From: an uncultured Eubacteriales bacterium
GTDB taxonomy: Bacteria > Bacillota > Clostridia > RGIG6154
Assembly: GCA_964492155.1 (NCBI GenBank)
Contig: CAZBJD010000003.1
Location: forward strand, 1 to 43,104
Length of the DNA stretch: 43,104 bases
Direction of reading: 5' to 3'
The notes beneath the pieces are model-generated. The model was not told where the DNA came from, searched no databases, and worked only from the letters and a program-made list of their open reading frames with translations. This document shows, one piece after another, positions 18,406 to 33,923 of the stretch. Position numbers and translations under genes: made by a program. Every line of letters begins with the position of its first letter. The stretch's first letter is position 1.

Positions 18406-19143
18406 ATGAAGCTAATTGCAAGTGATTTAGACGGAACTCTCCTTTTAAAAGGGGAACAAAAATTAAATAGCAGGATTTTTGAGTCTTTGAAAAGCTCAGG
18501 TGCGTCGGGAACCGACTTTGCAATTGCATCGGGAAGAACCTACGGCGAGCTTTTAAGGCTTTTTGAAGGATTGGAAAAGGATACATATTTCATAGCTCTT
18601 GACGGGGCTTTGGTTGTTCAGAACGGAAAAAGTCTGTACGGAAGTCCTTTTTCAAAGGAAGACCTTAAAATTATAAACGAACTTGACGAGTTTGTGCTTC
18701 ACGGTAAGTATATGACTTACGTAAAATCCGATTATCCTTATTTTATAAGGAAGATAAAGGCACAGTATAATGGACACGCTGTCAGAATTTCCGATGTTTC
18801 GGAGATTAAGGATTGCACCTTCAAGCTGGTGTTATACAAAAATTACCGCACGCTTTCAAAACTGCCCTTTGATATGGTTTACAAGGACAATTCACTTTGC
18901 GAGTTTGTCAAAGAGGGTATCAACAAGGGAATAGCACTGAAAAAACTGATGAATGGTCTTGGGCTTGAGCCTGAGGATTGTGCAGCTTTTGGCGACAGTG
19001 ATAACGATATTGAATTTTTGAAAAGCACTTCAAACAGTTATGCAGTTAAAAATTCAAAACACGCAATAAGAAAAATCTGTAAATTTTATACCGATGATAT
19101 AGCAGAAACTATCGATTTAATGATAAAGGAGGCAGCCAAATGA
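18406..19143 (+). CDS. Cof-type HAD-IIB phosphatase
   Basis: HAD motif I DLDGTLL, motif II IASGR(T), motif IV GDSDNDIEFL. The stop overlaps the GRE start (ATGA at 19140-19143). Confidence 0.85.
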   Translation: MKLIASDLDGTLLLKGEQKLNSRIFESLKSSGASGTDFAIASGRTYGELLRLFEGLEKDTYFIALDGALVVQNGKSLYGSPFSKEDLKIINELDEFVLHGKYMTYVKSDYPYFIRKIKAQYNGHAVRISDVSEIKDCTFKLVLYKNYRTLSKLPFDMVYKDNSLCEFVKEGINKGIALKKLMNGLGLEPEDCAAFGDSDNDIEFLKSTSNSYAVKNSKHAIRKICKFYTDDIAETIDLMIKEAAK

Positions 19144-21668
19144 AAAGATTTGACTTTGATGGGATTGAAAAAAGCCCGAGAATAGACCGTTTGATTGACA
19201 ATTTATTTGTAAAAATGCCCGAGATTGAGGCTGATCGTGCAGTGCTTCTTACCGAGTCTTATAAGAAAACAGAGGGCGACCCGATAATTTTAAGACGTGC
19301 AAAAGCGTTTAAAAATATCTGTGAAAATCTTCCTCTTACAATTCGCGATGAGGAATTGATTGTAGGTGCGGCAACAAAGGTTTCAAGAGGATGCCAGGTA
19401 TTTCCCGAGTATTCCTTTGAATGGCTTGAAAATGAGTTTGATACAGTTGCAACACGTTCTGCCGACCCGTTTTATATTTCAGACGAAACAAAGGAAACTT
19501 TAAAAGAGGTTTATAAGTACTGGAAAGGCAAAACAACAAGCGATCTTGCAACTTCTTATATGGTGCCGGGGGCTTTGAAGGCAATTGAGCATAATATTTT
19601 TACACCGGGCAACTATTTTTACAATGGTGTAGGTCACGTTACGGTTGACTATAAAAAAGTGCTTGAAATCGGTTATAAGGGCATTATGGCAGAGGCGAAA
19701 AAAGAGCTTGCGAAGTGCGATGTTACCGAGGCAGATTATGCATCAAAGAGTGCGTTTTTGGAAGCAGTAATTATCAGCTGCGAAGCGGCAATTACGTTTG
19801 CAAAAAGATATTCGGATTTGGCATATCAGATGGCAGGAAACTGTGCAGACCCTGTAAGAAAGCAGGAACTCCTTACTATTTCCGAGAACTGTGCCAACGT
19901 TCCCGAAAACGGAGCAAAATCGTTCTATGAGGCTTGTCAGTCATTCTGGTTTGTTCAGCTTTTAATTCAGACAGAATCAAGCGGACACTCAATTTCTCCG
20001 GGACGATTTGACCAATATATGTATCCGTATTTCAAAGCGGACATCGACAACGGAAAAATCACAAAAGAATTTGCTCAGGAGCTTATAGATTGTGTGTGGG
20101 TTAAGCTTAATGACTTTACAAAAGTAAGAGATGCGGCATCGGCTGAAGGCTTTGCAGGCTATAGCTTGTTCCAGAACCTTATTGCAGGAGGTCAGACCCG
20201 TGACGGAAGAGATGCTACAAACGAGCTTTCGTTTATGTCAATTGAAGCTACAATGCATGTACTTCTTCCGCAGCCCTCATTCTCTGTAAGAGTATGGAAC
20301 GGAACTCCTCACGAGTTTATGTTAAAAGCAGGTGAGCTTACAAGAACAGGCGTTGGTCTTCCTGCGTACTATAACGATGAGGTTATTGTGCCTGCACTCA
20401 TTAACCGCGGTCTTACTATGGAAGACGCAAGAGATTACAATATTATCGGTTGCGTAGAGCCACAATGTGCAGGAAAAACCGACGGTTGGCACGATGCGGC
20501 GTTCTTCAATATGTGCAGGATTGTTGAGCTTGTTTTCTCAAATGGTATGGATAACGGCGAGAGAATTGGTGTTGAAACAGGAAACGTTGAAAACTTTAAG
20601 ACGTTTGATGAATTTTTCGATGCTTACAAGGCTCAGATGAATTATATGATTAAGCTTATGGTTAATGCGGACAATGCAATTGATATGGCACACGCCATCC
20701 GTTGCCCGCTGCCCTTCCAGTCATCAATGGTTGCTGATTGTATCGGCAGAGGTAAGTCAATGCAGGAGGGCGGAGCGATTTATAATTTCACCGGTCCGCA
20801 GGGCTTTGGTATCGCAAATATGGCAGATGCACTTTATGCAATCAAAAAGCTCGTATTTGAAGAAAAGAAAGTTACTTTGGCAGAATACAAAGAAGCACTC
20901 TCTGATAACTATGGCAGAAGCGTTGACGAAAAGCAGGCAACTATGATTACAACTGAAATTGTAAAACAACTTGCGGCATCGGGCAAAAATGTTTCAAATG
21001 ACGAAATTGCCGAAATCTTCAAGAAAGTTGCGGCAAGCGGTGTGTCTGAAGAAAAGAAGGCAAAATACGATAAGCTTTTGGAAATGATTGATGCACTTCC
21101 GAAGTTTGGTAATGATAATGAAGAAGTTGATGCTTTAGCACGTGAAGTTGCTTATACATACACAAGACCTTTACAGCAGTATGAAAATCCGCGCGGCGGA
21201 AAATATCAGGCAGGTCTTTATCCGGTATCTGCCAATGTACCTCTCGGGGCACAAACAGGTGCAACACCTGATGGCAGACTTGCTCATACTCCGGTTGCAG
21301 ACGGTGTGTCGCCTTGTGCAGGAAAAGATATAAACGGTCCTACTGCTGCGGCAAATTCTGTATCAAGACTTGACCACTTTATTGCATCAAACGGAACTCT
21401 CTTTAATATGAAGTTTCATCCGTCTGCGTTAAAGGGAAGAGCAGGTCTTGAAAGCTTTGTTTCTCTTATCAGAGGATACTTTGACCAGAAGGGCAGTCAT
21501 ATGCAGTTTAACGTTGTAAGCCGTGAAACTTTAAAGGATGCTCAGCAAAATCCTGAAAAGTATAAGAGTCTGGTTGTTCGCGTTGCAGGATATTCTGCAC
21601 TCTTTACAACGCTTTCAAAATCACTTCAGGACGATATTATCAACAGAACCGAGCAGGGTGGATTTTAA
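19140..21668 (+). CDS. Glycyl radical enzyme, B12-independent 1,2-propanediol (diol) dehydratase-like
   Basis: Glycine loop VVRVAGYSALF (G817) and thiyl loop IIGCVEPQ (C438, E440). Long stretches (ADPFYIS, GNYFYNGVGHVTV, SISPGRFDQYMYPY, GFAGYSLFQNLI, GLPAYYNDEVI, GKTDGWHDAAFFNM, GLYPVSANVPLGAQTGATPDGR) match the Roseburia inulinivorans propanediol dehydratase as I recall it. Confidence 0.88.
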   Translation: MKRFDFDGIEKSPRIDRLIDNLFVKMPEIEADRAVLLTESYKKTEGDPIILRRAKAFKNICENLPLTIRDEELIVGAATKVSRGCQVFPEYSFEWLENEFDTVATRSADPFYISDETKETLKEVYKYWKGKTTSDLATSYMVPGALKAIEHNIFTPGNYFYNGVGHVTVDYKKVLEIGYKGIMAEAKKELAKCDVTEADYASKSAFLEAVIISCEAAITFAKRYSDLAYQMAGNCADPVRKQELLTISENCANVPENGAKSFYEACQSFWFVQLLIQTESSGHSISPGRFDQYMYPYFKADIDNGKITKEFAQELIDCVWVKLNDFTKVRDAASAEGFAGYSLFQNLIAGGQTRDGRDATNELSFMSIEATMHVLLPQPSFSVRVWNGTPHEFMLKAGELTRTGVGLPAYYNDEVIVPALINRGLTMEDARDYNIIGCVEPQCAGKTDGWHDAAFFNMCRIVELVFSNGMDNGERIGVETGNVENFKTFDEFFDAYKAQMNYMIKLMVNADNAIDMAHAIRCPLPFQSSMVADCIGRGKSMQEGGAIYNFTGPQGFGIANMADALYAIKKLVFEEKKVTLAEYKEALSDNYGRSVDEKQATMITTEIVKQLAASGKNVSNDEIAEIFKKVAASGVSEEKKAKYDKLLEMIDALPKFGNDNEEVDALAREVAYTYTRPLQQYENPRGGKYQAGLYPVSANVPLGAQTGATPDGRLAHTPVADGVSPCAGKDINGPTAAANSVSRLDHFIASNGTLFNMKFHPSALKGRAGLESFVSLIRGYFDQKGSHMQFNVVSRETLKDAQQNPEKYKSLVVRVAGYSALFTTLSKSLQDDIINRTEQGGF

Positions 21669-22459
21669 TGAATAAAGATTTTTACAACGTGAAAGGAAGA
21701 ATATTCGATATTCAGAAATTTTCAGTTCACGATGGCCCCGGGATTCGCAGTATCGTGTTTTTAAAAGGATGTGCACTCAGATGTAAGTGGTGCTGCAATC
21801 CTGAATCTCAAAGCTATGACATTGAGCAGATGAATATGGACGGAAAAATTAAAACTGTAGGCCGTGATGTTACAGTTGCGGAGGTTATGGATGAGGTTTT
21901 AAAGGATTTCCGATATTTCAAACGCTCAGGCGGCGGATTAACACTTTCGGGCGGAGAATGCCTTTTGCAGCCTGACTTTGCGGCAGCTCTTTTAGAAGCT
22001 GCCAAATACAATGGCATATCAACTGCGATTGAGTCTACAGGCTTTGCAAAATACGAGGTGATTGAAAGATTGCTTCCTTACTTAGATGTTTATCTGATGG
22101 ATATTAAGCATATCAACAGCGAAAAACACAGACTTTTTACGGGTCAGCCAAACGAAAGAATTCTGGAAAATGCGAAAAAGATTGCAAGAAATGCAAAAAG
22201 GCTTATTATAAGAGTTCCGGTTATTCCTACTTTTAATGATACAGTTGAGGAAATAACCGAAATTGCAAAATTTGCAAAAAGTCTTGAAAACGTAACTGAA
22301 ATACATCTTCTTCCATATCACAATTTTGGAACAGATAAATATAAATGGCTTGGGCGGGAATATAAGCTTCCCGATATCAAAACTCCGAGCAATGAAAAAA
22401 TGCAGGAGCTTCTGGAAGCGGTGCAAAGCTGCGGACTGGACGCTCAGATAGGAGGGTAA
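21668..22459 (+). CDS. Glycyl-radical enzyme activating enzyme (radical SAM), short PflA-like form
   Basis: CALRCKWCCNPES (CxxxCxxC radical-SAM cluster) and GGGLTLSGGEC SAM motif. The start overlaps the GRE stop (TAATG). No auxiliary Cys-rich ferredoxin insert. Confidence 0.9.
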   Translation: MNKDFYNVKGRIFDIQKFSVHDGPGIRSIVFLKGCALRCKWCCNPESQSYDIEQMNMDGKIKTVGRDVTVAEVMDEVLKDFRYFKRSGGGLTLSGGECLLQPDFAAALLEAAKYNGISTAIESTGFAKYEVIERLLPYLDVYLMDIKHINSEKHRLFTGQPNERILENAKKIARNAKRLIIRVPVIPTFNDTVEEITEIAKFAKSLENVTEIHLLPYHNFGTDKYKWLGREYKLPDIKTPSNEKMQELLEAVQSCGLDAQIGG

Positions 22460-22460
22460 T

Positions 22461-22829
22461 ATGCAGGATTTAAATATGCAGGACAAGATGAGAATAGTTC
22501 AAGAGCTTGTCCCCGGCAAACAGATAACCCTTGCACACATTATTGCAAATCCGGATCAGATTTTATATAAAAAGCTCGGTCTGGATCCTGCGGTTGAATA
22601 CTCAAAATCAGCAATAGGAATTATAACACTTTCACCAAGTGAAACTGCGATAATTGCAGGCGACCTTGCCATCAAGGCATCAGGTGCGGAACTTGGGTTT
22701 GTTGACAGATTCAGCGGTACTTTGATAGTAACAGGCACAGTTTCCGAGGTTGAAGCTTCAATGAACGCAATTTGTGATTACTGCAGAGAAAAGCTTGGCT
22801 TTACAATCTGCGAAATCACAAGAACCTGA
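22461..22829 (+). CDS. pduU: Circularly permuted BMC-H shell protein (PduU/EutS type)
   Basis: Colinear with PduU/EutS: RIVQELVPGKQITLAHIIANPDQILYKKLGL...AIGIITLSPSETAIIAGDLAIKASGAELGFVDRFSGTLIVTGTVSEVE. Confidence 0.85.
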   Translation: MQDLNMQDKMRIVQELVPGKQITLAHIIANPDQILYKKLGLDPAVEYSKSAIGIITLSPSETAIIAGDLAIKASGAELGFVDRFSGTLIVTGTVSEVEASMNAICDYCREKLGFTICEITRT

Positions 22830-22845
22830 TTTGGGGGGATAAACC

Positions 22846-23271
22846 ATGAAAAGAATAATTTTTATGGGAAGAACAGGTTCGGGAAAAACATCGCTGACAC
22901 AGGCTTTGAAGAAACAACCTGTCAGGTATCACAAAACCCAGTACATAAATTATCACGATGTTATTATCGACACTCCCGGTGAATATGCAGAAAATGCACA
23001 TCTGGGAAGAGCACTTGCACTTTACTCATATGAGGCGGATGTGGTGGGCCTGCTTTTAAGTGCCACAGAGGAATATTCGCTTTTCCCGCCGAACATAACC
23101 TGCCTTGTTAACAGAGAGGTTATCGGTATAGTAACAAAAATAGATAAAAACGGAGCAAATCCAACAAGAGCAAAAAAGTGGCTTGAACTTACCGGATGTA
23201 AGAAAATCTTCTTTTTAAGCTCAAAAACAGGTGAAGGGATAGAAGAATTGACTGATTATTTGTCAAATTAA
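22846..23271 (+). CDS. pduV: EutP/PduV-family small GTPase
   Basis: P-loop GRTGSGKTSL, DTPGEY, and the TKID NKxD-like motif. The size (141 aa) is typical of EutP/PduV. Confidence 0.85.
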   Translation: MKRIIFMGRTGSGKTSLTQALKKQPVRYHKTQYINYHDVIIDTPGEYAENAHLGRALALYSYEADVVGLLLSATEEYSLFPPNITCLVNREVIGIVTKIDKNGANPTRAKKWLELTGCKKIFFLSSKTGEGIEELTDYLSN

Positions 23272-23322
23272 ATCTAAATCCACAAAAAACCACAGAAAAA
23301 TAAAAAAAATAACAGAATTTTG

Positions 23323-23351
23323 TTGACAAAACAAAGAAATAGTGATAGTAT
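23323..23351 (+). promoter_or_regulatory. Internal sigma-A promoter ahead of the aldolase-to-deoR unit (TTGACA-17-TGaTAGTAT)
   Basis: Consensus -35 at 23323-23328 and extended -10 at 23343-23351, within the 143-bp gap after pduV. No terminator hairpin is visible in the gap. Confidence 0.5.
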
Positions 23352-23414
23352 TATATTGTAGTAAAATACTGCTGCATTATTAATAGTAAACAAATTGAAA
23401 AGGAGAAATAGATT

Positions 23415-24227
23415 ATGACTTCAGAATTTGAAATCAAAAAACAAATTTGTGACATCGGTAAGAGAATTTATGACAGAAACATGGTTGCTGCTAATGACGG
23501 TAACATTTCAGTTAAAATTTCTGACAATGAATTCTTGTGCACACCTACAGGTGTAAGCAAAGGCTTTATGACACCCGAATACATCTGCAAGGTTGACAGA
23601 GATGGTAATGTTATTCAGGCAAACGGAAACTTCAAGCCTTCATCAGAAATCAAAATGCATATGAGAGTTTATCAGCAGAGACCTGACGTAAAGAGTGTTG
23701 TGCACGCTCATCCTACATACGCAACAAGCTTTGCTATCGCAGGTATTCCGCTTACACAGCCCATTATGCCTGAAGCAGTTATTACATTAGGTTGCGTTCC
23801 GATTGCTGAGTATGGCACACCATCTACAATGGAAATTCCGGACGCAGTTGAAAAGTATCTGCAGTATTATGATGCAGTGCTTCTTGCAAACCACGGTGCA
23901 CTTGCATATTCAGACAGCTTACTTTCAGCATACCACAAGATGGAATCATTGGAATTCTATGCAGAGCTTCTTTTCAAAGCAAGAATGCTCGGCGGTCCAA
24001 AAGAATTGACACCTCCGCAGGTTGAAAGACTTTATGAAATCAGAAGACAGTTCGGTATGACAGGTAAACATCCTGCAGACCTTTGTCCTAACGCTAAGAA
24101 TGGTAAAACAAGCTGCCACTCATGCGGAAGCTGCGGCGGCAACTGTGGCAGTCATAAGTCAGCAGGAAGCGACGCTGATTTGGTTGCTGCTATTACAAAG
24201 AAAGTAATGGAACAGCTTGGTAAATAA
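23415..24227 (+). CDS. Class II aldolase (L-fuculose-/L-rhamnulose-1-phosphate aldolase-like) with Cys-rich linker and C-terminal encapsulation-peptide-like helix
   Basis: Class II aldolase/adducin motifs (NDGNISV, PSSE..MH, HAHP, ANHGAL). Residues 216-270 are an extension relative to about 215-aa FucA enzymes. Confidence 0.85.
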   Translation: MTSEFEIKKQICDIGKRIYDRNMVAANDGNISVKISDNEFLCTPTGVSKGFMTPEYICKVDRDGNVIQANGNFKPSSEIKMHMRVYQQRPDVKSVVHAHPTYATSFAIAGIPLTQPIMPEAVITLGCVPIAEYGTPSTMEIPDAVEKYLQYYDAVLLANHGALAYSDSLLSAYHKMESLEFYAELLFKARMLGGPKELTPPQVERLYEIRRQFGMTGKHPADLCPNAKNGKTSCHSCGSCGGNCGSHKSAGSDADLVAAITKKVMEQLGK

Positions 24228-24251: not shown

Positions 24252-24728
24252 ATGATGAACGAACAGAATATTTCTTCTTTGATAGCTGCTGCAATAAAAG
24301 ATGTAGCCTTATTACCTTCAGGAGAAATGACATTAGAGAAAGCTAAAAAGCTTGCTTTAATCGTAGAAAAAGAGGCAGCACGTATTGGAGTGAAAGCAGT
24401 AGTTGCAATTTCCAATTCAGCTGCAAGACCGGTGCTTGTTGAGTGTATGGATGATTCATACATAGCAAGCTACGATGTTGCTTTTAACAAGGCATACACC
24501 GTGGTTGCACTCAAAATGCCAACCTCAGAGCTTAAGAAATTAAGTCAGCCGGGTGAGTCACTCTACGGTATACAGTTTACCAATCAGGGTAAAATTGTTA
24601 TTTTCGGCGGCGGTGAACCGCTTTATGAAAATGGTAAAATCGTAGGCGGTCTCGGAGTAAGCGGAGGCAGCGAAGAACAGGATACATATCTTGCAGGATT
24701 TGGTGCCAAGGCTTTCGGGGAGGTATAA
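24252..24728 (+). CDS. GlcG/HbpS-like DUF336 protein (PduO C-terminal domain type)
   Basis: DUF336 signature FGGGEPLYENGKIVGGLGVSGGSEEQD. ATG at 24252 is 5 nt after AAAGGAG; the ORF track starts at TTG 24237. The N-terminal amphipathic helix is ISSLIAAAIKDVAL. Confidence 0.75.
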   Translation: MMNEQNISSLIAAAIKDVALLPSGEMTLEKAKKLALIVEKEAARIGVKAVVAISNSAARPVLVECMDDSYIASYDVAFNKAYTVVALKMPTSELKKLSQPGESLYGIQFTNQGKIVIFGGGEPLYENGKIVGGLGVSGGSEEQDTYLAGFGAKAFGEV

Positions 24729-24730
24729 AG

Positions 24731-26279: not shown

Positions 26280-26555
26280 ATGGCAATGGAAGCATTAGGT
26301 ATGATTGAAACAAGAGGTCTTACTGCAGCAATTGAAGCAGCAGACGCAATGGTAAAAGCTGCTGAGGTTACACTCATCGGCACAGAAAAAATCGGATCAG
26401 GACTTGTAAGTGTTATGGTTCGCGGCGATGTTGGAGCTGTTAAAGCTGCTACAGAAGCCGGCTCAACATGTGCTCAGAGATTAGGTGAATTGGTTGCAGT
26501 TCATGTAATTCCAAGACCGCACGCAGACGTTGAAAAAATTCTCCCTAAATTCTAA
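26280..26555 (+). CDS. BMC-H shell protein (PduA/EutM type)
   Basis: Canonical sequence [55 protein letters not shown]. Confidence 0.92.
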
Positions 26556-27021: not shown

Positions 27022-27279
27022 ATGATTATCGGTAAGGTAATAGGAAGCGTTGTTTCCACAAGAAAAAATGAAAATTTGGTTGGAAGCAAATTTATGATTA
27101 TAGAACCTGCTTACAAGACGGGTAACGGCAATATTATTGCAGTTGACAATGTTGGTGCAGGTATCGGAGAATATGTTTTGGTTGCAACAGGCAGTGCGGC
27201 AAGAATTGGCTGCAATATGGCATCAAGTCCTGTTGATGCAGCAATCGTCGGAATTGTGGACGACGGAGCAAATCTTTAA
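27022..27279 (+). CDS. pduN: BMC-P pentameric vertex protein (EutN/PduN/CcmL family)
   Basis: MIIGKVIGSVVSTRKNENLVGSKFMII...VDNVGAGIGEYVLVATGSAAR is typical of EutN/CcmL. Confidence 0.9.
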   Translation: MIIGKVIGSVVSTRKNENLVGSKFMIIEPAYKTGNGNIIAVDNVGAGIGEYVLVATGSAARIGCNMASSPVDAAIVGIVDDGANL

Positions 27280-27316
27280 GATTTTTTAAAGCTTTACGAA
27301 AGGAAAGTTGACTTTT

Positions 27317-28648
27317 ATGACATTTGATGAACTTAGCACAATACTAAAAGACAACGGAATAGTGGGTGCAGGCGGCGCCGGATTTCCTACATATGCAAAG
27401 CTTTCCCAAAAGGCTGATACAATTATTTTAAACTGTGCAGAATGCGAACCGCTTTTAAAACTTCACAGACAGGTTTTGAAGAAAAATACTGTTGAAATTT
27501 TTGACACGCTTTGCCTTATTGCAGAAGTTTTAGGTGCAAATGACATTGTAATTGCAATCAAAGAAGCCTACAAAACCACATTGCAGGCTGTACGCAATAC
27601 ACTTCCTGCATACAAAAATATCAGACTTTCACTTCTTCCTGAGGTTTATCCTGCAGGTGACGAAGTTATGATTGTTTACGAAACAACAAAAAGAATTGTG
27701 CCGCCGGGTAAAATTCCGATAGCGGTCGGTGCAATAGTTTTTAACGTTGAAACAGTTTTCAACATTTACAAGGCAATTGAAAAAAAAGAGCCTGTTACAT
27801 ATAAGTATATTACTCTGGCAGGCGAGATTGAAAAACCTATTACGGTTAAGGCTCCCATCGGTATAACCTTTGACGAAGTTCTGAAAAAAGCCGAGGGGCT
27901 TACAGTAGAAGATTATGCACTTATTTGCGGCGGTCCCATGACGGGTACGCTTGCAACAACAAGTGATGTTGTAACAAAGACAACAAATGCAATTCTGGTT
28001 TTACCGGAAGACCATTACATTATAAATAAAAAGAATTCAAACAACAAGCACAATATGAAAAGAGCTATGAGTGCATGCTGTCAGTGCAGAATGTGTACTG
28101 ATTTGTGCTCGAGGCATCTTTTAGGTCACCCAATTAAGCCCCATGAGTTTATGAGAGCGGCTACAAGCGGTGATACAAGAAAATTAGAACCGTTTTTAGA
28201 TACAATGTATTGTTCAGGCTGCGGACTTTGCGAAATGTATGCGTGTCAGCAGGGATTGTCCCCGAGAACGCTTATTGCAGAGTATAAAGCGGGCTTGAAA
28301 GCAAACGGAATCAAGCCTCCGGAAAATGTAAAATCTGAAGGAGTTAATCCTTTAAGAGCGTTAAGACAGGTTCCCAAGGCAAGGGTGAAAAACAGACTCG
28401 GACTTTCCAAGTATAACAGAGCTGCACCCATAGATGAAGAAATTATAAAGACAGATAAAGTTAAAATAAAGCTTTCTCAGCATATCGGTGCACCTGCAAA
28501 AGCCGTTGTGAAAAAAGGCGACAAGGTTGAAGCAGGTCAGCTTATAGCAAAGGCGGCAGAAAATGCACTTTCGGTAAACATTCATGCTTCAATTTCAGGC
28601 ATCGTTGCCAAGGCAGATGAAAACTTTATCATTATTTCAGCAAATTAG
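27317..28648 (+). CDS. pduS: PduS-like flavo-iron-sulfur oxidoreductase (RnfC/NuoF-related)
   Basis: NADH/FMN motif GAGGAGFPT and two 4Fe-4S motifs (CCQCRMCTDLC, CSGCGLCEMYAC). An RnfC_N-type barrel-sandwich motif (QHIGAPAKAVVKKGDKVEAGQLIAK) sits at the C-terminus. ATG at 27317; the ORF track starts at TTG 27308. Confidence 0.85.
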   Translation: MTFDELSTILKDNGIVGAGGAGFPTYAKLSQKADTIILNCAECEPLLKLHRQVLKKNTVEIFDTLCLIAEVLGANDIVIAIKEAYKTTLQAVRNTLPAYKNIRLSLLPEVYPAGDEVMIVYETTKRIVPPGKIPIAVGAIVFNVETVFNIYKAIEKKEPVTYKYITLAGEIEKPITVKAPIGITFDEVLKKAEGLTVEDYALICGGPMTGTLATTSDVVTKTTNAILVLPEDHYIINKKNSNNKHNMKRAMSACCQCRMCTDLCSRHLLGHPIKPHEFMRAATSGDTRKLEPFLDTMYCSGCGLCEMYACQQGLSPRTLIAEYKAGLKANGIKPPENVKSEGVNPLRALRQVPKARVKNRLGLSKYNRAAPIDEEIIKTDKVKIKLSQHIGAPAKAVVKKGDKVEAGQLIAKAAENALSVNIHASISGIVAKADENFIIISAN

Positions 28649-28665: not shown

Positions 28666-29214
28666 ATGAGTAAGGCAATCGGTATGGCAGAATACCAGAC
28701 AGTTTCTACAGGTATTCAGGCAGCGGATTTAATGGTTAAAACCGCCCTTGTTGATATTATAGAGGCACAGACGGTTTGCCCGGGTAAGTACATAGTAATT
28801 ATCAAAGGCGATTTAAGTGCAGTTAAGGCTGCAGTTGAGGCAACAAAAGTGCAGTTTGAAAAAGAGCTTATTGACAGCTTTGTGCTCGGCAATCCGGATG
28901 AGTCGATTTTCCCCGCAATTTACGGTTCCAACGAAATTGAAAATCCAAGTGCACTTGGTGTTATGGAAACATATTCTGCAGCGTCTATGATAGTTGCGGC
29001 GGATATAGCAGCAAAAACCGCAGAGGTTCAGCTTATTGAACTTCGCTTAGCACGGGGAATGTGCGGAAAATCTTATATGTTAATTACCGGTGAGGTTGCG
29101 GCAGTTACTGCTTCAATCGAACACGCAAAGCAGGAAATCGGCGAAAAGGGAATGTTCTTAAACAGCTCGGTTATCCCCAGTCCTGATGAAAAAATCTGGG
29201 CTACCGTGCTTTAA
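28666..29214 (+). CDS. pduT: PduT-like tandem-domain BMC-T shell protein with pore cysteine (Cys38)
   Basis: Two BMC domains in 182 aa, colinear with Salmonella PduT. The TVCPGKY motif places Cys at residue 38, the position of the PduT 4Fe-4S ligand. Confidence 0.88.
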   Translation: MSKAIGMAEYQTVSTGIQAADLMVKTALVDIIEAQTVCPGKYIVIIKGDLSAVKAAVEATKVQFEKELIDSFVLGNPDESIFPAIYGSNEIENPSALGVMETYSAASMIVAADIAAKTAEVQLIELRLARGMCGKSYMLITGEVAAVTASIEHAKQEIGEKGMFLNSSVIPSPDEKIWATVL

Positions 29215-29255
29215 GCCATTGGTACGAATAAAATCTTATGTGAGGTGCTAAACAA

Positions 29256-30656
29256 ATGGAATTAAATGAAAAATACATCCAGGAAATAGTTGAAAAAGTA
29301 GTGTCAAGCGTAAAAAGCGAAAACGGCATCGTAAGAGGCAAACAACTTAAAGGTGTTTTTGCTACAATGGGCGAAGCACTCGCTGCAGTTGACAAGGCTT
29401 ATAAAGAATTTAAGGGCTACAGCGTGGCTCAGCGTGAAAAAATGATTGCTAAAATCAGGGAGCTGACCTTGGCTGAAGCTGAAAATATGGCTGTCTTAGG
29501 TGTTGAAGAAACAGGGATGGGCAGGGTTTCGGATAAAATTATCAAGCATCAGCTTGTTGCTGAAAAAACTCCCGGAACTGAAGATTTAAGACCGGAAGTT
29601 ATTACAGGCGATGAGGGACTCACACTTGTTGAAATGGCACCTTACGGTGTTATCGGAAGCATTACTCCTTCAACAAACCCGTCAGAAACTGTTATTTGTA
29701 ATACAATGGGTATGATTGCAGGCGGAAACGCAGTTGTATTCAATCCCCATCCAAACGCATGTGATACTGCAAACTATGCAGTTGACCTTGTAAACAGAGC
29801 AATTTTAGAGGCAGGCGGTCCTGAAAACTTAGTTGTATCAGTTGCAAAGCCTACCAGAGAATCATCAAATGAAATGATGGCTTCTCCTGTTGTAAGAATG
29901 CTTGTTGCAACAGGCGGTCCGGGTGTTGTTAAGGCTCTTTTGTCATCAGGCAAAAAGGCAATCGGTGCAGGTGCAGGTAATCCTCCTGTTATTGTTGACG
30001 ATACCGCCGATGTTGAAAAGGCAGGTGCTGATATTGTTAAAGGTGCAAGCTTTGACAATAATCTTCCCTGTATCGCTGAAAAAGAATGTTTTGTATTTAA
30101 CAATGTTGCAGACAGACTTATTAATTCAATGACCGGAAACGGTGCATATCTGATTAAAGGTGCAGATATAGATAAACTTGTTAAAGTTGCTCTTGTTGAG
30201 AAAGATGGTAAATACTCAATCAACAAGAAATTTGTAGGCAGAGATGCTTCTAAATTCTTAAAGGAAATCGGAATTGATGCAGATCCCAGACTCATTATCT
30301 GCGAAACTGATTTTAACCATCCTTTCGTTCAGGAAGAGCTTATGATGCCCATACTTCCCATTGTAAGAGTAAATAACATTGACGAAGCTATCGAGCTGGC
30401 AGTTAAAGCTGAACACGGAAACCGTCATACAGCTCATATTCACTCTAAAAATGTTGACCATCTTACAAGATTTGCAAAAGCGGTTGAAACAACAATTTTT
30501 GTTAAAAATGCTCCGTCATACGCAGGTATCGGTGCAGGCGGCGAAGGTTATACGACCTTTACAATTGCAGGCCCTACAGGTGAGGGATTAACTGCTGCTC
30601 ACTCATTTACAAGAAGCAGAAGATGCGTTATGGTAGACGGATTGCACATTGTTTGA
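29256..30656 (+). CDS. pduP: CoA-acylating aldehyde dehydrogenase (PduP/EutE type) with N-terminal encapsulation peptide
   Basis: Catalytic Cys context NNLPCIAEKE and the GAGAGNPP motif. The N-terminal amphipathic helix is YIQEIVEKVVSSV. Confidence 0.9.
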   Translation: MELNEKYIQEIVEKVVSSVKSENGIVRGKQLKGVFATMGEALAAVDKAYKEFKGYSVAQREKMIAKIRELTLAEAENMAVLGVEETGMGRVSDKIIKHQLVAEKTPGTEDLRPEVITGDEGLTLVEMAPYGVIGSITPSTNPSETVICNTMGMIAGGNAVVFNPHPNACDTANYAVDLVNRAILEAGGPENLVVSVAKPTRESSNEMMASPVVRMLVATGGPGVVKALLSSGKKAIGAGAGNPPVIVDDTADVEKAGADIVKGASFDNNLPCIAEKECFVFNNVADRLINSMTGNGAYLIKGADIDKLVKVALVEKDGKYSINKKFVGRDASKFLKEIGIDADPRLIICETDFNHPFVQEELMMPILPIVRVNNIDEAIELAVKAEHGNRHTAHIHSKNVDHLTRFAKAVETTIFVKNAPSYAGIGAGGEGYTTFTIAGPTGEGLTAAHSFTRSRRCVMVDGLHIV

Positions 30657-30680
30657 TTTTGCTGAAAGGATAAATTTGTT

Positions 30681-31331
30681 ATGAAAGCTTTGGGAATGAT
30701 TGAGGTTTACAGCTTTACAACTGCAGTTTGCGTTGGCGATGTTGCTGCAAAAGCCGCAGATGTTAAGGTTATAGCCTTTGACAGAAACAGACCTATTTCT
30801 CCTGATGTTCCTGCCCCGTTGGTAATGATTGTTAAAATAGAGGGCGATGTTGCTGCTGTTAAAGCTGCAGTTGAAGCAGGTGTTAACTACGCAAAGGAAA
30901 AGGGTAAATATATTGTATCTCATATAATACCGCGTCCCGACGAGGATACTGAAAATATGGCTTATCTTATGGATATCAACAAAGATAAGTACAACAAGAA
31001 AATTCCAAAATCCTTCAGGGGTATGGAAGTTGAGCCTCCTGCAAACAAGGCGTCAATCGGACTTTTGGAGGTTCAGGGTCTGGTTGCATCAATCGAAGGG
31101 TTGGATGCAATGCTCAAGACTTCTGAAGTACGACTTGTTCACACCGAAAAAAGACTTGGCGGAAGGCTTGTTACAATTATAATCACAGGCAGCGTTTCTG
31201 CAGTAAAATCTGCTATTGAAGCAGGAAATAAAAACGCAAGCTCTTTGGGCGAAATATTCGGATGTGAAGTGATTGCAAATCCTCACGATGAGATACTTAA
31301 GTTTTTTGATATGGAAAGCACTATTGCATAA
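30681..31331 (+). CDS. Tandem-domain BMC-T shell protein (two Pfam00936-like domains)
   Basis: Domain 1 is ALGMIEVYSFTTAVCVGDVAAKAADVKV...[15 protein letters not shown]. Domain 2 is IGLLEVQGLVASIEGLDAMLKTSEVRLV...ITGSVSAVKSAIEAG. A linker of about 35 aa separates them. Confidence 0.8.
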   Translation: MKALGMIEVYSFTTAVCVGDVAAKAADVKVIAFDRNRPISPDVPAPLVMIVKIEGDVAAVKAAVEAGVNYAKEKGKYIVSHIIPRPDEDTENMAYLMDINKDKYNKKIPKSFRGMEVEPPANKASIGLLEVQGLVASIEGLDAMLKTSEVRLVHTEKRLGGRLVTIIITGSVSAVKSAIEAGNKNASSLGEIFGCEVIANPHDEILKFFDMESTIA

Positions 31332-31343
31332 AGGAAGATTTTG

Positions 31344-32000
31344 ATGGATACAAAAATTATTGAAGATGCAGTTTTAAGAGTTATAAACGAATATAACAAG
31401 GATTTAAACGGCGAAATCAAGGTAGGTGTATCACAAAGACACATTCATCTTTCGAGAGAAGATCTTGATGTTTTGTTTGGTAAAGGCTATGAGCTTACCA
31501 AAAAGAAAACTCTTATGGGAAGAGAATATGCTTCTGAAGAAACAGTTACTTTGGTTGGTCCTTCGCTTAAATCTATCGAAAAGGTTCGTGTGTTGGGACC
31601 TGTGAGGAAAGACACACAGGTTGAAATTTCAAGAACCGATACTTTTATTTTGAAAGTAAGTCCTCCTGTTCGTCCGTCAGGTCAGATTGAAGGGTCTGAA
31701 AGAGTTGTTGTTGTAGGACCTAAAGGCAGCGTATATTTAAAACAGGGTGTTATTATTGCAAACCGTCATATTCACTTAACACCGGCATACGCTGAACGTC
31801 ATAACATTAAAGACGGCGACTATGTGGATGTTATGGTTGAAGGTATTAAGCCTACAAAGTTTTTTGATGTTCAGGTAAGAGTAAGAGATGACTTTAACGT
31901 TGAAATGCACATTGATACAGATGATGCAAACTCTGCGGGAATCAAAAACGGCAGCATTGTAAAAATCGTAAGAAAGTGCGAAAACTGCAACTGTCGATAA
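31344..32000 (+). CDS. pduL: Phosphate propanoyltransferase PduL with N-terminal EP-like helix
   Basis: Duplicated PduL motifs (VGVSQRHIHLSREDLDVLFG; IANRHIHLTPAYAE). N-terminal helix is IIEDAVLRVINEY. ATG at 31344; the ORF track starts at TTG 31341. Confidence 0.88.
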   Translation: MDTKIIEDAVLRVINEYNKDLNGEIKVGVSQRHIHLSREDLDVLFGKGYELTKKKTLMGREYASEETVTLVGPSLKSIEKVRVLGPVRKDTQVEISRTDTFILKVSPPVRPSGQIEGSERVVVVGPKGSVYLKQGVIIANRHIHLTPAYAERHNIKDGDYVDVMVEGIKPTKFFDVQVRVRDDFNVEMHIDTDDANSAGIKNGSIVKIVRKCENCNCR

Positions 32001-32020
32001 GATAATTATGGGGTGATTTT

Positions 32021-32782
32021 TTGTTCGCATTAGAGCGTCAGAAAAGGATATTGGAGCTTCTGGCACAAGACGGAGCCGTGCTTGTTACAAAACTGAGTGC
32101 AGAGCTTGGTGTTACAGAAGAAACTGTAAGACGTGATTTGGAAAAACTTGAAAAACAGGAGGCACTGGTAAGGACTCATGGCGGTGCGGTGCCTGTCGTG
32201 GATTCAAATCACGAGCTTTCTTTGGAAAAAAGAAAGAATATAAATGTTGAGTCAAAAATTAAGCTTGCAAAAGAAGCGGTAAATCACATTGTGTCAGGCG
32301 ATACTGTGTTTTTGGATGCATCAACCACGACGTTTTATATTGCAAAAGAGCTTAAAAATATGAAAAATGTTACAATCGTTACAAATTCAATCAGAGTGGT
32401 AAACGAGCTTGCCGGTCAGCAGAATTTAAATGTTATTGCAATCGGCGGATATGTGAGCAATAATCAGTCACTTGTGGGAAGTATTGCACAAAATGACATT
32501 GCAACAAACTACTTTGCAAATAAAATGTTTTTCTCAAGCAGAGGCACAACCGAAAGCGTTGGAATTTTGGAAAGCAACGAACAGGAATGCGGCATAAAGC
32601 AGGCAATGATGAAAAATGCCGAGAAAAAGTATTACGTTTGCGACCGTTCAAAAATCGGCAGAGTGGGCTTTGCAAAGCTTGCACAGTTTACCGATGTTGA
32701 CTATGTAATCGCAGAAGGTCCGTTGGAGGATTCATTCAGAAGAGTTTTTGATGATATTGAAACAAAGTTAATTGAGATTTGA
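32021..32782 (+). CDS. DeoR-family transcriptional regulator
   Basis: N-terminal HTH (ERQKRILELLAQDGAVLVTKLSAELGVTEETVRRDLEKLE) and a C-terminal DeoR sugar-phosphate sensor domain. TTG start 4 nt after GGGGTGA. Confidence 0.85.
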   Translation: MFALERQKRILELLAQDGAVLVTKLSAELGVTEETVRRDLEKLEKQEALVRTHGGAVPVVDSNHELSLEKRKNINVESKIKLAKEAVNHIVSGDTVFLDASTTTFYIAKELKNMKNVTIVTNSIRVVNELAGQQNLNVIAIGGYVSNNQSLVGSIAQNDIATNYFANKMFFSSRGTTESVGILESNEQECGIKQAMMKNAEKKYYVCDRSKIGRVGFAKLAQFTDVDYVIAEGPLEDSFRRVFDDIETKLIEI

Positions 32783-32784
32783 TA

Positions 32785-32809: not shown

Positions 32810-32813
32810 CTCA

Positions 32814-33923
32814 TTACATAAACAGTTTCGTTAGGACATTTTCCGCAAATTCTTTGCCGATTTCACCATAGCATTTATTGAAATTTTTATTATTTTCAAA
32901 GCGAGGGGTGAGAGCATCAATTTTATCTTTTGTAAGCTTTATTCCAAGGTCGGGCAGGTTTGCTTTGATTAAATTAACAAGAGTGTCACGGTCTGTGCGA
33001 AGGGAACAGAAAAATTCATTTGCGTCATTTGGTACAACAGCGATGTTATAGTCAATAAATTCTTCAAGATAAATCGCACAGGCGTTTCCGTGGGGAACAT
33101 TATACTGCTCTGAAAGGAAATATCCAAGGGCGTGCGGAAAGCATGTTCCTGCAACGCTTATGGCAAGTCCGCCGTAAAGTGAAGCACAGTAAAGCTTTTC
33201 GCGGTCTTGGAATGTAAGCTCTGATGCATCGCATTTGGCAGTTTTATCAAGCATTTCAAGCAGGATTGAAATTCCGCGAAGTGCAAAGGTTTTGCATATT
33301 TCATTTGAGGTGCGGTTAAAATATGCCTCAATTGAGTGGCTTAATGCATCTAAAGCGGTAGAGCGTGTAAAATCGGTGGGAAGCGACATTGTGTAGCTTG
33401 CATCGCCGAAAGCAACCTTTGGAAATACCGACGGAGCTTTAAAGCTTTTTTTAACACCGTCGGGTGTGGTTATTACAGAAACAGGAGTAACCTCACTTCC
33501 TGTGCCTGCAGTTGTTCCTATTGCGATAACAGGGAGAGGCTCTGAGTCCCATTCCATGGAATAAAGTGCGGCTGCAGACATATCGCTTACCGAGGCAAGC
33601 ACAGCTACTGCTTTTGCGGCATCTAAGGGCGAGCCGCCGCCTATTCCTATTATGAAATCTGCTTTAATTTCTTTTGCTTTTTCTGCAGCTTTTTTGCAGG
33701 TTGCATAAGATGGATTTTGCTCGATTTCATCAAAAATACCGTAACTGATTTTAGCAGCTGCCAGTGCAGATATAACATCATCCAAAGCTCCGCATTTTTT
33801 GGCAGAGCTTTTGCCTGTCACAATAAGGCAGGTTTTTCCGAATGACGAAAAAACAGCCGCGTTTTTTGTTACACAATTTTTGCCGGTTATGATATTTACC
33901 GGTGCATAAAAATTCATATTCAT
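32814..33923 (-). CDS. Iron-containing (group III) alcohol dehydrogenase
   Basis: GGGSPLDAAKA NAD motif and the metal-binding His patterns ALDALSHSIEAY and FPHALGY...PHG. Confidence 0.88.
   Translation of the reverse strand: MNMNFYAPVNIITGKNCVTKNAAVFSSFGKTCLIVTGKSSAKKCGALDDVISALAAAKISYGIFDEIEQNPSYATCKKAAEKAKEIKADFIIGIGGGSPLDAAKAVAVLASVSDMSAAALYSMEWDSEPLPVIAIGTTAGTGSEVTPVSVITTPDGVKKSFKAPSVFPKVAFGDASYTMSLPTDFTRSTALDALSHSIEAYFNRTSNEICKTFALRGISILLEMLDKTAKCDASELTFQDREKLYCASLYGGLAISVAGTCFPHALGYFLSEQYNVPHGNACAIYLEEFIDYNIAVVPNDANEFFCSLRTDRDTLVNLIKANLPDLGIKLTKDKIDALTPRFENNKNFNKCYGEIGKEFAENVLTKLFM

Follow-up and report, generated by a model that had tools for sequence, protein, structure and literature searches.

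The window, i.e., the whole stretch of 43,104 nucleotides analysed, holds an operon of an uncultured member of the Clostridia from the gut or rumen. By using an open reading frame list and Pfam and NCBIfam profile searches, 19 genes were found at the coordinates and in the families that the initial annotation had assigned, its reading frames being exact. Genes and signals of the locus are reported in Table 1.

Table 1. Features of the microcompartment locus and its surroundings (positions in the window)
Feature	Position	Strand	Basis
Promoter-like site TTGACT-17-TAAAAT	18347..18375	+	Gap 5' of first locus gene; consensus match only
Cof-type HAD-IIB phosphatase	18406..19143	+	Hydrolase_3 E = 7e-38; TIGR00099 117 bits, below cutoff
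GRE, predicted B12-independent 1,2-propanediol dehydratase, 842 aa	19140..21668	+	PFL-like and Gly_radical
GRE insertion, ~65 aa (residues ~596-662), two helices	20925..21125	+	Alignment break and conserved pattern
GRE-activating radical-SAM enzyme, 263 aa, without ferredoxin-like insertion	21668..22459	+	TIGR02494 306 bits, above cutoff
PduU/EutS-type (permuted) BMC-H	22461..22829	+	BMC domain; EutS PRK15468 116.5 bits, just under cutoff 123
PduV/EutP family small GTPase	22846..23271	+	PF10662 E = 2e-51; TIGR02528 144.7 bits, above cutoff
Promoter-like site TTGACA-17-TAGTAT with TG	23323..23351	+	143-bp PduV-aldolase gap; consensus match only
Class II aldolase, fuculose/rhamnulose-1-phosphate type	23415..24227	+	Aldolase_II residues 10-185 of 270
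DUF336/HbpS-like (GlcG, PduO C-terminal domain family)	24252..24728	+	PF03928 residues 31-154
Long-ADH start: Shine-Dalgarno GGGGAGG, 7-nt spacer, GTG	24717..24733	+	Sequence
Zn-ADH full ORF, 509 aa	24731..26260	+	ADH_N and ADH_zinc_N
Domain X, ~100-aa alpha/beta domain, N-terminal to ADH EP	24731..25036	+	AlphaFold2, Foldseek, hhalign
Short EP-ADH start: in-frame Shine-Dalgarno AAGGAG, 7-nt spacer, ATG (Met111)	25048..25063	+	Sequence
ADH EP-like amphipathic helix, residues 113-129	25067..25117	+	AlphaFold2 helix 115-129, low-confidence flanks
Zn-dependent medium-chain ADH catalytic part	25169..26260	+	ADH_N and ADH_zinc_N (PF08240/PF00107)
BMC-H, PduA-like	26280..26555	+	BMC domain E = 9e-30
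BMC-H, Lys/Ala-rich N-terminal extension ~33 aa	26571..26948	+	BMC domain = residues 38-113
BMC-P pentamer, EutN/PduN	27022..27279	+	PF03319 E = 5e-29
PduS-like flavo-Fe-S oxidoreductase	27308..28648	+	Complex1_51K, Fer4_17, SLBB, RnfC_N
PduT-like BMC-T	28666..29214	+	Two BMC domains; TIGR02526 135.8 bits, below cutoff
CoA-acylating propionaldehyde dehydrogenase (AldDH), PduP/EutE family	29256..30656	+	PRK15398 680 bits, above cutoff
Second tandem-domain BMC-T	30681..31331	+	Two BMC domains
PduL phosphate propanoyltransferase	31341..32000	+	PF06130 E = 4e-70; PRK15070 244 bits, above cutoff
DeoR-family regulator, last conserved locus gene	32021..32782	+	HTH_DeoR and DeoRC
Convergent Fe-ADH	32814..33923	-	Fe-ADH domain

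The best PDB match of the glycyl radical enzyme (GRE) was 5i2a (1301 bits, free of gaps over residues 3-840 of both proteins), the characterised 1,2-propanediol dehydratase of Roseburia inulinivorans; in the same comparison glycerol dehydratase scored 1053 bits and CutC about 516 bits. As previously proposed, by sequence the enzyme groups with the diol dehydratases rather than with CutC, and it carries the catalytic residues H166, C438, E440 and G817. The alignment to glycerol dehydratase breaks at residue 600, and the helical amphipathic pattern of the insertion found there is kept across related loci; it corresponds to the putative intramolecular encapsulation peptide (EP) of the propanediol dehydratases of GRM3, GRM4 and GRM5 (PMC5311937, PMC6325248). 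The initial annotation did not include this EP-like insertion. In the activase, which shows a CX3CX2C motif at residues 35-42, TIGR02494 matched in two stretches, the second aligning profile position 96 to residue 60, so that about 35-45 profile positions are skipped, and PF00037 was not found by the Pfam search; the lack of a ferredoxin-like insertion has been ascribed to GRM5 activases (PMC6325248).

Six genes encode shell proteins. The GrpU motif G-x-C-P-Q is not present in the sequence of the PduU/EutS-type protein, nor was GrpU found in the locus, and this absence is itself a GRM5 hallmark. The PduT-like protein has the Fe-S ligand Cys38, within TVCPGKY, while the best solved-structure match of the second tandem BMC-T was the tandem BMC-H fusion 6ner. 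For the BMC-H with the N-terminal extension, an alternative later start is present at MALEALGM.

As for the known markers of this compartment type (PMC4207490, PMC6325248), we found PduS, PduT, a Zn-ADH of PF00107/PF08240, DeoR, a hydrolase and DUF336, as well as an activase lacking the ferredoxin insertion and an aldolase with a C-terminal EP; every GRM5 feature that could be looked for in the sequence was found. The presumed GRM5-type core, an aldolase plus a B12-independent diol-dehydratase-like GRE in a BMC cluster, is thus borne out by the families and by the match to 5i2a. By contrast, the accessories that the initial annotation had regarded as non-canonical belong to the published ancillary set (HAD hydrolase, DUF336, PduS and DeoR; Axen 2014, PMC4207490), and the order of the genes recurs elsewhere: a synteny comparison revealed the same 17-gene order in dozens of uncultured Clostridia/Oscillospiraceae genomes, which, recurring identically across many species, is far beyond chance. 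In dozens of these related loci PduV, HAD and DUF336 lie at equivalent positions, the HAD phosphatase is likewise the first gene (28-43% identity) and DeoR is found at the 3' end (55-70% identity). Beyond DeoR, the Fe-ADH had been included in the periphery of the locus, but no orthologue follows DeoR in the related loci, the closest one included; therefore, this gene (177 bits against the lactaldehyde reductase model, whose cutoff is 523) is probably a neighbour outside the conserved locus. Of the two promoter-like sites, the one preceding the aldolase gene is a possible internal promoter; the number of such sites in the region was not significantly above that in shuffled sequences. Taken together, it is highly probable that positions 18406-32782 hold an entire microcompartment operon of the GRM5 glycyl-radical-enzyme type, with a fucose/rhamnose pathway. 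The locus is a known kind of system and essentially ordinary, encoding a protein-shelled organelle that converts fucose/rhamnose breakdown products into propionate.

EP-like helices had been proposed on five putative cargo proteins. The peptides occur where they were quoted and their hydrophobic pattern is conserved beside variable linkers; in the orthologue alignments four of them, on the aldolase, DUF336, AldDH and PduL, form conserved extensions at the protein ends. The helical hydrophobic moment, taken by itself, does not make the proposed EPs stand out. In the aldolase, which falls below the cutoff of all specific NCBIfam models, the C-terminal extension has two parts, a Cys/His-rich linker at residues ~224-241 and, at ~253-270, an EP helix, and the orthologues keep both this EP and an HPADxCPN..SCHxCG motif; a C-terminal EP has been published for BMC aldolases (PMC4594438). 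The DUF336 orthologues keep an N-terminal amphipathic segment followed by a variable linker, the reading frame here opening at TTG 24237 and the start being likely ATG 24252 or 24255. AldDH orthologues keep an N-terminal NEKYIxEIV helix with a variable linker, and PduL has a conserved N-terminal EP helix and a Cys-rich C-terminal tail, CENCNC. The fifth peptide, that of the ADH, lies at residues 117-129 of a 509-aa ORF, hence not at its N-terminus but behind a folded domain of about 100 residues.

The published GRM5 model consists of a luminal aldolase, the Zn-ADH as lactaldehyde reductase, the GRE and AldDH (PMC6325248, PMC5311937). The scheme with aldolase and Zn-ADH in the lumen put forward in the initial annotation was already in print (PMC6325248), hence it is not new, and the NAD+/NADH cycle follows from it. 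By assuming substrates and locations as in this model, L-fuculose-1-phosphate or L-rhamnulose-1-phosphate would be supplied by enzymes encoded elsewhere; profile searches found no fucose/rhamnose isomerase, kinase or transporter within the window, as had been noted. The EP-tagged aldolase would split the sugar phosphate into DHAP and L-lactaldehyde, which the EP-tagged Zn-ADH would reduce with NADH to 1,2-propanediol; the GRE, switched on by its activase with electrons probably delivered via PduS and PduT, would produce propionaldehyde, which the PduP-type dehydrogenase would convert into propionyl-CoA, returning NADH; from propionyl-CoA, PduL would make propionyl-phosphate, returning CoA. The compartment would be built from the six shell genes, and the DeoR-family regulator, for which a sugar phosphate is the probable signal, would govern expression. 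That fucose/rhamnose induce the locus, that shells form and that cargo is encapsulated are expectations carried over from C. phytofermentans and R. inulinivorans (PMC3557285, PMC6325248).

The role of the Zn-ADH in this pathway may be twofold. Its core is 85-94% identical across species, which places it with BMC-H near the top of the locus in conservation; the closest solved structure, 1vj0, scored 123 bits only, and the protein is below every substrate-specific NCBIfam cutoff. Since the enzyme is without a close characterised relative, lactaldehyde, propionaldehyde or both are possible substrates; its homologue was named LR (lactaldehyde reductase) in PMC6325248 and propanol dehydrogenase by Petit 2013 (PMC3557285), and we propose either or both functions for it.

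The sole apparently undescribed detail of the locus is the extra AldDH-derived domain of this ADH, with two presumed nested ADH sizes; neither domain X nor the internal start was in the initial annotation. Domain X, modelled by AlphaFold2 with pLDDT 77-95 in the full-length protein and a mean of 80 alone, had no Pfam or PDB sequence match. Its best 22 Foldseek PDB matches were without exception acylating AldDHs (TM 0.66-0.73, E only ~1e-3, 12-16% identity), and hhalign aligned it to residues 276-377 of the AldDH of the same locus with 96.6% probability (E = 5e-10 to 6e-11), whereas nine control families gave at most 5.6% and E >=0.007. A stop-free X extension is present in ~30 of 80 species loci, essentially one sub-clade, and its dN/dS of 0.14-0.39 indicates purifying selection. 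Thus, domain X derives from a segment of the catalytic domain of an acylating AldDH, without the catalytic Cys, and we are very confident that it is a conserved coding domain of this origin. Where a locus lacks it, the ADH begins with the homologous peptide, MDINxxxIEx; here, the EP is followed by a Gly/Ser/Ala/Pro linker up to about residue 146. As a non-catalytic module, domain X might bind proteins of the compartment core, even if a scaffold role is a tentative, rather doubtful suggestion.

The long ADH start has a matching arrangement in related loci (GGAGG, 7-8 nt, GTG/ATG/TTG), and an aGGAGa motif lies 7-8 nt 5' of the internal ATG in nearly all X-bearing loci. At the internal Shine-Dalgarno, 17 of 18 loci use AGG for Arg, a codon that accounts for 3.9% of those for Arg in the ADH core, so that AGGAG appears to be conserved as a nucleotide sequence; some of the Arg-Arg conservation could stem from a constraint on the protein instead. 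As the conserved in-frame Shine-Dalgarno and ATG before the EP imply two nested ADH products, we consider it somewhat probable that both are made. In this sub-lineage, a separate Shine-Dalgarno precedes each of the two in-frame starts of the ADH gene, which would yield a short product, the usual EP-linker-ADH, and a long one in which domain X (~100 aa) is placed before it. Domain X is encoded as a separate, translationally coupled ORF in two related loci (L080 and L082), and together with the helix as a stand-alone protein in a third (L081).

The run of co-directional open reading frames described in the initial annotation was found exactly at the coordinates it gave, all of its gene-family assignments were borne out by Pfam and NCBIfam scans, and its overall classification was correct: the locus is real and is a GRM5, a glycyl-radical-enzyme (GRE) microcompartment of the fucose/rhamnose type. 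The GRE (PF02901 and PF01228) and its activase (PF04055) lie alongside BMC shell genes (PF00936, PF03319), the combination by which a GRM is defined (PMC6325248), and the metabolosome core is represented by a CoA-acylating aldehyde dehydrogenase (AldDH) and PduL, both bearing an encapsulation peptide (EP), and by an alcohol dehydrogenase (ADH) gene of the NAD+-recycling type. The flanks carry nadABC, a sigma/anti-sigma pair, an RDH/QueG-like Fe-S protein, an AraC regulator, a cupin, pyruvate kinase, FtsW and tRNA synthetases, and G+C content and skew are uniform over the region. No RNA family was found in the window by the Rfam scan, the terminator scan gave nothing convincing, and promoter-like sites were not more numerous than in shuffled sequence.

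Features of the locus, its surroundings and the related loci carrying a separate domain X
Feature	Positions	Strand	Description	Basis
Upstream gene cluster	534-5157		RpiB/LacAB-family sugar-phosphate isomerase, GDSL esterase, AraC regulator, rhamnosidase-like gene	
Fe-S protein	15010-17271	-	753 aa; directly upstream of the AraC gene	
AraC gene	17382-18224		precedes the locus	
Conserved GRM5 module	18406-32782	+		
Cof-type HAD hydrolase			first gene of operon	Pfam/NCBIfam
GRE			842 aa, PFL-like/Gly_radical; with cognate radical-SAM activase	Pfam
EutS/PduU-type BMC, PduV/EutP, class II aldolase, HbpS-like/DUF336, Zn-ADH				Pfam/NCBIfam
Aldolase Cys/His motif	24084-24137		residues ~224-241, linker before EP	
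Domain X	24731-25036		N-terminal part of the Zn-ADH ORF (509 aa from GTG 24731)	
Zn-ADH catalytic part	25169-26260			
Two BMC-H genes, EutN, PduS-like flavo-Fe-S protein				Pfam
Extension of second BMC-H	26571-26669		N-terminal, Lys/Ala-rich	
PduT-like tandem BMC			Cys38 present	
Acylating AldDH			conserved N-terminal helix	PRK15398, 680 bits, above cutoff
Second tandem BMC, DeoR				Pfam
PduL			conserved N-terminal helix	PRK15070, 244 bits, above cutoff
PduL C-terminal tail	31941-32000		Cys-rich	
Fe-ADH	32814-33923		convergent	
L080, domain X	9900-10300		99-kb contig, Oscillospiraceae lineage	
L082, domain X	1577-1915		short low-coverage contig, Oscillospiraceae lineage	
L081, domain X and next gene	798-1124 and 1137-1223		1.2-kb metagenome contig	

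To place the locus among its relatives, one genome per species was scanned with the ADH as query, which gave at least 590 relatives; 80 loci were fetched and compared by tblastn of all window proteins. Dozens of gut and rumen MAGs of uncultured Clostridia, Oscillospiraceae and Ruminococcus showed an identical gene order (HAD, GRE, activase, PduU, PduV, aldolase, DUF336, ADH, BMC-H, BMC-H, BMC-P, PduS, PduT, AldDH, BMC-T, PduL, DeoR), and the window locus is thus a GRM5 of a gene-order type common in uncultured gut and rumen Clostridia. In a second type, present in Lachnospiraceae (Dorea, Faecalimonas, Lachnotalea and others, C. phytofermentans-like), the AldDH gene stands between DUF336 and ADH, and in a third, of Acutalibacteraceae, the locus is closed by DeoR, AldDH and PduL; the three types separate in a neighbour-joining tree of five concatenated proteins. 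The convergent Fe-ADH, which the initial annotation had included, is probably not part of the system, since related loci lack it at that position, and the AraC gene was rejected as a conserved component on the same ground; the conserved module was therefore drawn without the two genes. Non-orthologous Fe-ADH genes, 27-31% identical to that of the window, occur in or near some GRM5 loci, between PduT and AldDH in L040 and after DeoR in L029 and L059, which may reflect a repeated requirement for an additional alcohol dehydrogenase, possibly one that forms propanol.

The best PDB match of the GRE was the Roseburia inulinivorans diol dehydratase (5i2a, 1301 bits), aligned from 3-840 on 3-840 with no gap. 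The C. butyricum glycerol dehydratase scored 1053 bits, with an alignment broken at residue 600, and other GREs were far behind among all PDB sequences (choline TMA-lyases about 516 bits, HypD 538, IslA about 460). The CutC NCBIfam model reached 601 against a cutoff of 1050, and none of the equivalog models for CutC, HypD or sulfopropanediol came close to its cutoff. Because 5i2a leads, the choline TMA-lyases trail and these models fall short, the GRE groups, by score ranking, with 1,2-propanediol dehydratases and not with CutC, the clustering that the initial annotation had named as the counter-case to its diol-dehydratase-like assignment. H166, C438, E440 and G817 are present with the numbering of the crystallised enzyme (for the roles of C438 and E440, see PMC13450708). 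Residues ~596-662 form a two-helix insertion of about 60 aa, absent from glycerol dehydratase and with its pattern kept in orthologues, which in the literature on GRM3/4/5 enzymes is regarded as an encapsulation peptide of intramolecular type (PMC5311937, PMC6325248).

According to Ferlez et al., PduS and PduT occur in every GRM5 locus and GrpU in none, and GRM5 activases alone are without the ferredoxin-like insertion (PMC6325248); DeoR, a hydrolase and DUF336 are counted among the GRM5 ancillary genes (PMC4207490). In the window, PduS and PduT are present and GrpU is absent, the PduU-like protein is without the G-x-C-P-Q motif, the activase is without the insertion, and DeoR, hydrolase and DUF336 are all in the locus. 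Since each of these features is present, the accessories, which had been called non-canonical, are canonical: DeoR, hydrolase, DUF336, PduS and PduT are all published for GRM5. With the loci of R. inulinivorans and Clostridium (Lachnoclostridium) phytofermentans (Cphy_1174-1187) the window shares the GRE with internal insertion, the short activase, PduU, the class II aldolase with C-terminal EP, Zn-ADH, PduP-type AldDH, PduL, BMC-H, BMC-P, PduS, PduT and DeoR but, unlike them, it has a HAD gene heading the operon. The GRM3 of Rhodopseudomonas palustris BisB18 is alike in its propanediol-dehydratase GRE with intramolecular EP, PduP-type AldDH, PduL and shell, whereas it lacks both an aldolase and a Zn-ADH in the role of lactaldehyde reductase, has the ferredoxin-like insertion in its activase and shares only ~52% GRE identity with GRM5 enzymes (PMC5311937). 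The PVM and PVM-like loci of Planctomycetes and Verrucomicrobia share the signature class II aldolase with C-terminal EP, DeoR and the same sugars (PMC4207490) but, unlike the window, have no GRE, and their core enzymes oxidise lactaldehyde directly in an aerobic pathway.

Gene families, gene order, conserved terminal helices, the match of the GRE to a propanediol dehydratase that has been characterised, and both start signals of the ADH gene can be read directly, while the pathway is drawn from the GRM5 literature. Fuculose-1-P or rhamnulose-1-P would be formed in the cytosol and cleaved in the lumen to DHAP and lactaldehyde; this would be reduced with NADH to 1,2-propanediol, which radical dehydration would turn into propionaldehyde, to be oxidised to propionyl-CoA with NAD+ and CoA and then phosphorolysed by PduL. 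PduS and PduT would support GRE activation, and the DeoR regulator would control the locus. Ferlez et al. already describe an encapsulated fuculose-P aldolase, lactaldehyde reductase (PF00107/PF08240) and GRE (PMC6325248), and a luminal aldolase/Zn-ADH scheme, together with the NADH cycle that it implies, thus belongs to the published model. Induction by fucose or rhamnose, polyhedral bodies, and propionate and propanol production are known only for C. phytofermentans and R. inulinivorans (PMC3557285). Core, accessories and redox logic of the locus are known biology.

The aldolase (PF00596) leaves some room for another sugar phosphate, such as 5-deoxyribulose-1-P, ribulose-1-P or 3-oxo-tetronate-4-P, in an organelle that would not serve fucose or rhamnose. 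In fact, its best NCBIfam match is 3-oxo-tetronate 4-phosphate decarboxylase (141 bits, below cutoff), all FucA models are also below cutoff and, as the initial annotation had claimed, no fucose/rhamnose isomerase, kinase or transporter lies within the window. On the other hand, the GRE matches a proven 1,2-propanediol dehydratase very closely and without gaps, and an enzyme acting on 1,2-propanediol needs lactaldehyde, and with it a 6-deoxyhexulose-1-P, earlier in the pathway; fucose and rhamnose induce homologous loci (PMC3557285), and a rhamnosidase-like gene lies 14 kb upstream. We consider a different sugar phosphate very improbable. The rhamnosidase-like protein (840 aa) resembles GH106 alpha-L-rhamnosidases, with a jelly-roll domain and scores below cutoff; its cluster could release L-rhamnose from rhamnose-containing glycans for the GRM5 pathway. 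The Fe-S protein gene on the minus strand encodes a C-terminal part weakly similar to reductive dehalogenases/QueG (84 bits, below cutoff).

The five amphipathic peptides quoted in the initial annotation are all present. By a helical hydrophobic-moment scan the proposed EPs looked no different from other amphipathic helices, and they were therefore judged by terminal position, linker and conservation. The DUF336 protein, whose N-terminal EP-like helix is conserved in orthologues, is probably luminal, and Aussignargues et al. described C-terminal EPs on BMC aldolases and N-terminal EPs on AldDH and PduL (PMC4594438). This bears on whether the locus is a plain 1,2-propanediol-utilising GRM, GRM3-like in function, with aldolase and Zn-ADH in the cytosol or with the Zn-ADH serving only as an NAD+-regenerating propanol dehydrogenase. 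Petit et al. 2013 annotated its homologue Cphy_1179 as a propanol dehydrogenase and assigned lactaldehyde reduction to PduS, and C. phytofermentans makes propanol besides propionate (PMC3557285); the window ADH (PF00107 and PF08240) has no characterised close relative and, as its closest solved structure scores only 123 bits, sequence does not fix its substrate. However, the aldolase has a conserved C-terminal EP with linker and lies inside the operon, beside shell genes, in all related loci, and in more recent analyses the Zn-ADH is taken to be the lactaldehyde reductase (PMC6325248, PMC5311937). A plain propanediol organelle is, on balance, distinctly unlikely; if this putative lactaldehyde reductase accepted both substrates, the two views would be compatible. 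Its catalytic part is, together with BMC-H, among the most conserved products of the related loci L001-L080, with 85-94% identity between species, compared with 67-78% for the GRE and 75-81% for AldDH, and a dN/dS of 0.00-0.08, a constraint unusually strong for an enzyme of only proposed function.

A feature missed by the initial annotation is the part of the ADH ORF that precedes the catalytic domain. The ADH fold begins near residue 147 and the EP lies at 113-129, ahead of which about 100 residues form what we call domain X. Ahead of the conserved MD(I/M)N start, about 30 of the 80 species keep an open frame of 98-185 codons, whereas in the others it closes after 0-68, and X-bearing loci make up essentially one sub-clade of the window type in the neighbour-joining tree. 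Public gene calls include many long ADH forms (476-557 aa), their N-terminal part without a Pfam domain, and cluster look-ups gave no names for them. Domain X is only 30-42% identical between species, whereas the ADH core is 85-91% identical, and even in the closest locus, L001, whose proteins are 88-98% identical to those of the window, X alone is lower (65%). Nevertheless, the motifs (D/E)ELIYxLIExGGYLAS, SLxAVL, KFIIY and PFGAVG are kept, as are GGY, F78 and A70, and the dN/dS of X is 0.14-0.39. AlphaFold2, with a 73-sequence alignment, predicted residues 1-102 confidently (pLDDT 77-95) as helix, strand, helix, strand, helix, helix, strand, strand, followed by a low-confidence region containing a helix at 115-129 and then by the ADH.

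The top 22 Foldseek matches of X in the PDB are all CoA-acylating AldDHs (SucD, 3k9d, 5j78, the PduP 5jfm/5jfl of the R. palustris GRM3, AdhE), with TM 0.66-0.73, probability 1.0 and 12-16% identity. In agreement, hhalign placed X on residues 276-377 of the window AldDH (probability 96.6%, E = 5e-10), from just past the catalytic Cys272 to the MPILPIVRV strand, whereas nine other locus families used as profile-profile controls gave 5.6% or less; the strongest match (E = 6e-11) was the Lachnospiraceae-type AldDH, which in its own loci sits at the position of X. The kinship is visible only by profile-profile and structure comparison: a word-indexed homologue search with X alone found no match, an exhaustive phmmer search against 1.84 billion representatives gave 7 weak or short matches only, and neither Pfam (E up to 10) nor a PDB profile search with the X alignment returned a meaningful match. 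The N-terminal 275 and C-terminal 90 residues of AldDH have no counterpart in X and, because the catalytic Cys and the NAD(P)/CoA-binding Rossmann domain are missing, X is AldDH-derived without itself being an AldDH. From sequence and predicted fold, X is an unannotated non-catalytic domain, which most likely arose from an AldDH gene formerly upstream of ADH. Unlike the Lachnospiraceae-type loci, with AldDH directly upstream of ADH (PMC3557285), the window has its AldDH after PduT, followed by an extra BMC-T and PduL, and the slot before ADH holds X, fused in frame to the ADH with the internal start kept. An AldDH-family module N-terminal to an ADH also occurs in AdhE, which contributes ACDH domains to the Foldseek matches (8uhw, 6ahc, 3my7), but there a complete active AldDH is fused to an Fe-ADH, while in the window ~100 catalytic-domain residues are joined to a Zn-ADH via EP and linker.

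Both starts of the ADH gene carry a ribosome-binding signal: GGGGAGG lies 7 nt before the GTG, and AAGGAG 7 nt before the ATG of Met111, the internal start predicted for a short EP-ADH product. In related loci the first start shows GGAGG at 7-8 nt, then GTG, ATG or TTG, and the internal one aGGAGa 7-8 nt before ATG. The internal motif encodes Arg-Arg, with AGG as the first of the two codons in 17 of 18 loci, whereas AGG makes up 3.9% of Arg codons in the same genes, which indicates a constraint at the nucleotide level, as expected of a ribosome-binding site. In L080 and L082, X has a 112-aa ORF to itself, which lacks an EP and whose stop TGA overlaps the ATG of the ADH (ATGA), with AAAGGAGG inside the 3' end of the X ORF, an arrangement that suggests translational coupling. 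In L081, DUF336 is followed by a stand-alone X ending in the EP-like helix ISETQIREIVEQILFKL and a stop, and then directly by a BMC-H gene, with no ADH catalytic domain at this position. L082 and L083 are short low-coverage contigs, where a stand-alone X could be a frameshift artefact; that of L082 is corroborated because the 99-kb contig of L080 has the same ATGA overlap, while that of L083 is doubtful. Our inference is that X-EP-ADH and EP-ADH are both made from the window gene, with X as an autonomous module.

As a best guess, X would bind other proteins or act as a scaffold within the cargo core. The main rival of this view is a slowly decaying remnant, that is, a functionless leftover of the deleted AldDH gene, translated only because it is in frame, with the short EP-ADH alone being of importance. 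The full AldDH gene at exactly this position in Lachnospiraceae-type loci, the best fit of X to that very protein, its much faster evolution than the ADH core and the preserved internal start would all agree with a leftover. On the other hand, a neutral remnant would not remain stop-free for so many codons in about 30 species, and X has a dN/dS well under 1, conserved motifs, a confident predicted fold, its own conserved Shine-Dalgarno and start, and survives as a separate coupled ORF in L080 and L082; we therefore regard the leftover as rather unlikely. As for the scaffold, we propose tentatively that one GRM5 sub-clade of about 30 species makes two nested ADH proteins, in which the X pseudo-enzyme may act as a luminal adaptor, for example docking ADH onto AldDH or nucleating the cargo core. 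Single genes read from two in-frame starts, both preceded by a ribosome-binding site, are known from CcmM58/M35 of beta-carboxysomes and from PduB/PduB', and the long form of CcmM has an extra N-terminal gamma-carbonic-anhydrase-like domain used for core organisation. The nested ADH proteins, if they had such a role, would be the metabolosome counterpart of CcmM58/M35, although they have no sequence relationship with these systems, their extra domain is AldDH-derived and precedes an EP on an ADH, and the two products are predicted from the gene.

The locus adds a further GRM5 to those of uncultured gut or rumen Clostridia, in keeping with the recognised importance that fucose/rhamnose fermentation to propionate has in gut ecosystems, and its novelty is modest and confined to the AldDH-derived domain and the nested ADH products. 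As far as checked, these are undescribed and X has no Pfam family; the extension is not mentioned in the BMC literature examined, which did not include Zarzycki et al. 2015 (PMC4644659). Domain X bears on how metabolosome cargo cores are organised and how enzymes without an obvious EP are encapsulated: as a conserved pseudo-domain joined to an EP and presumably produced together with a shorter isoform, it would be a concrete candidate organising factor in a catabolic microcompartment, and could serve as a part for engineering enzyme co-localisation.

Three further features were observed in the proteins of the locus. The aldolase linker, supposedly poorly conserved, contains a Cys/His motif, HPADxCPN-x(5-7)-SCHxCG-x(n)-C, kept in all three locus types, which looks like a metal site (Zn or Fe-S). 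PduL carries a tail with KCENCNCR beyond its PTAC domain, which ends at residue 201; both fit the picture of GRMs as 'redox-replete'. Finally, the second BMC-H has ~33 additional residues before its BMC domain, with a possible alternative internal start at MALEALGM, and an N-terminally extended BMC-H has also been noted in C. phytofermentans (Cphy_1182; PMC3557285).
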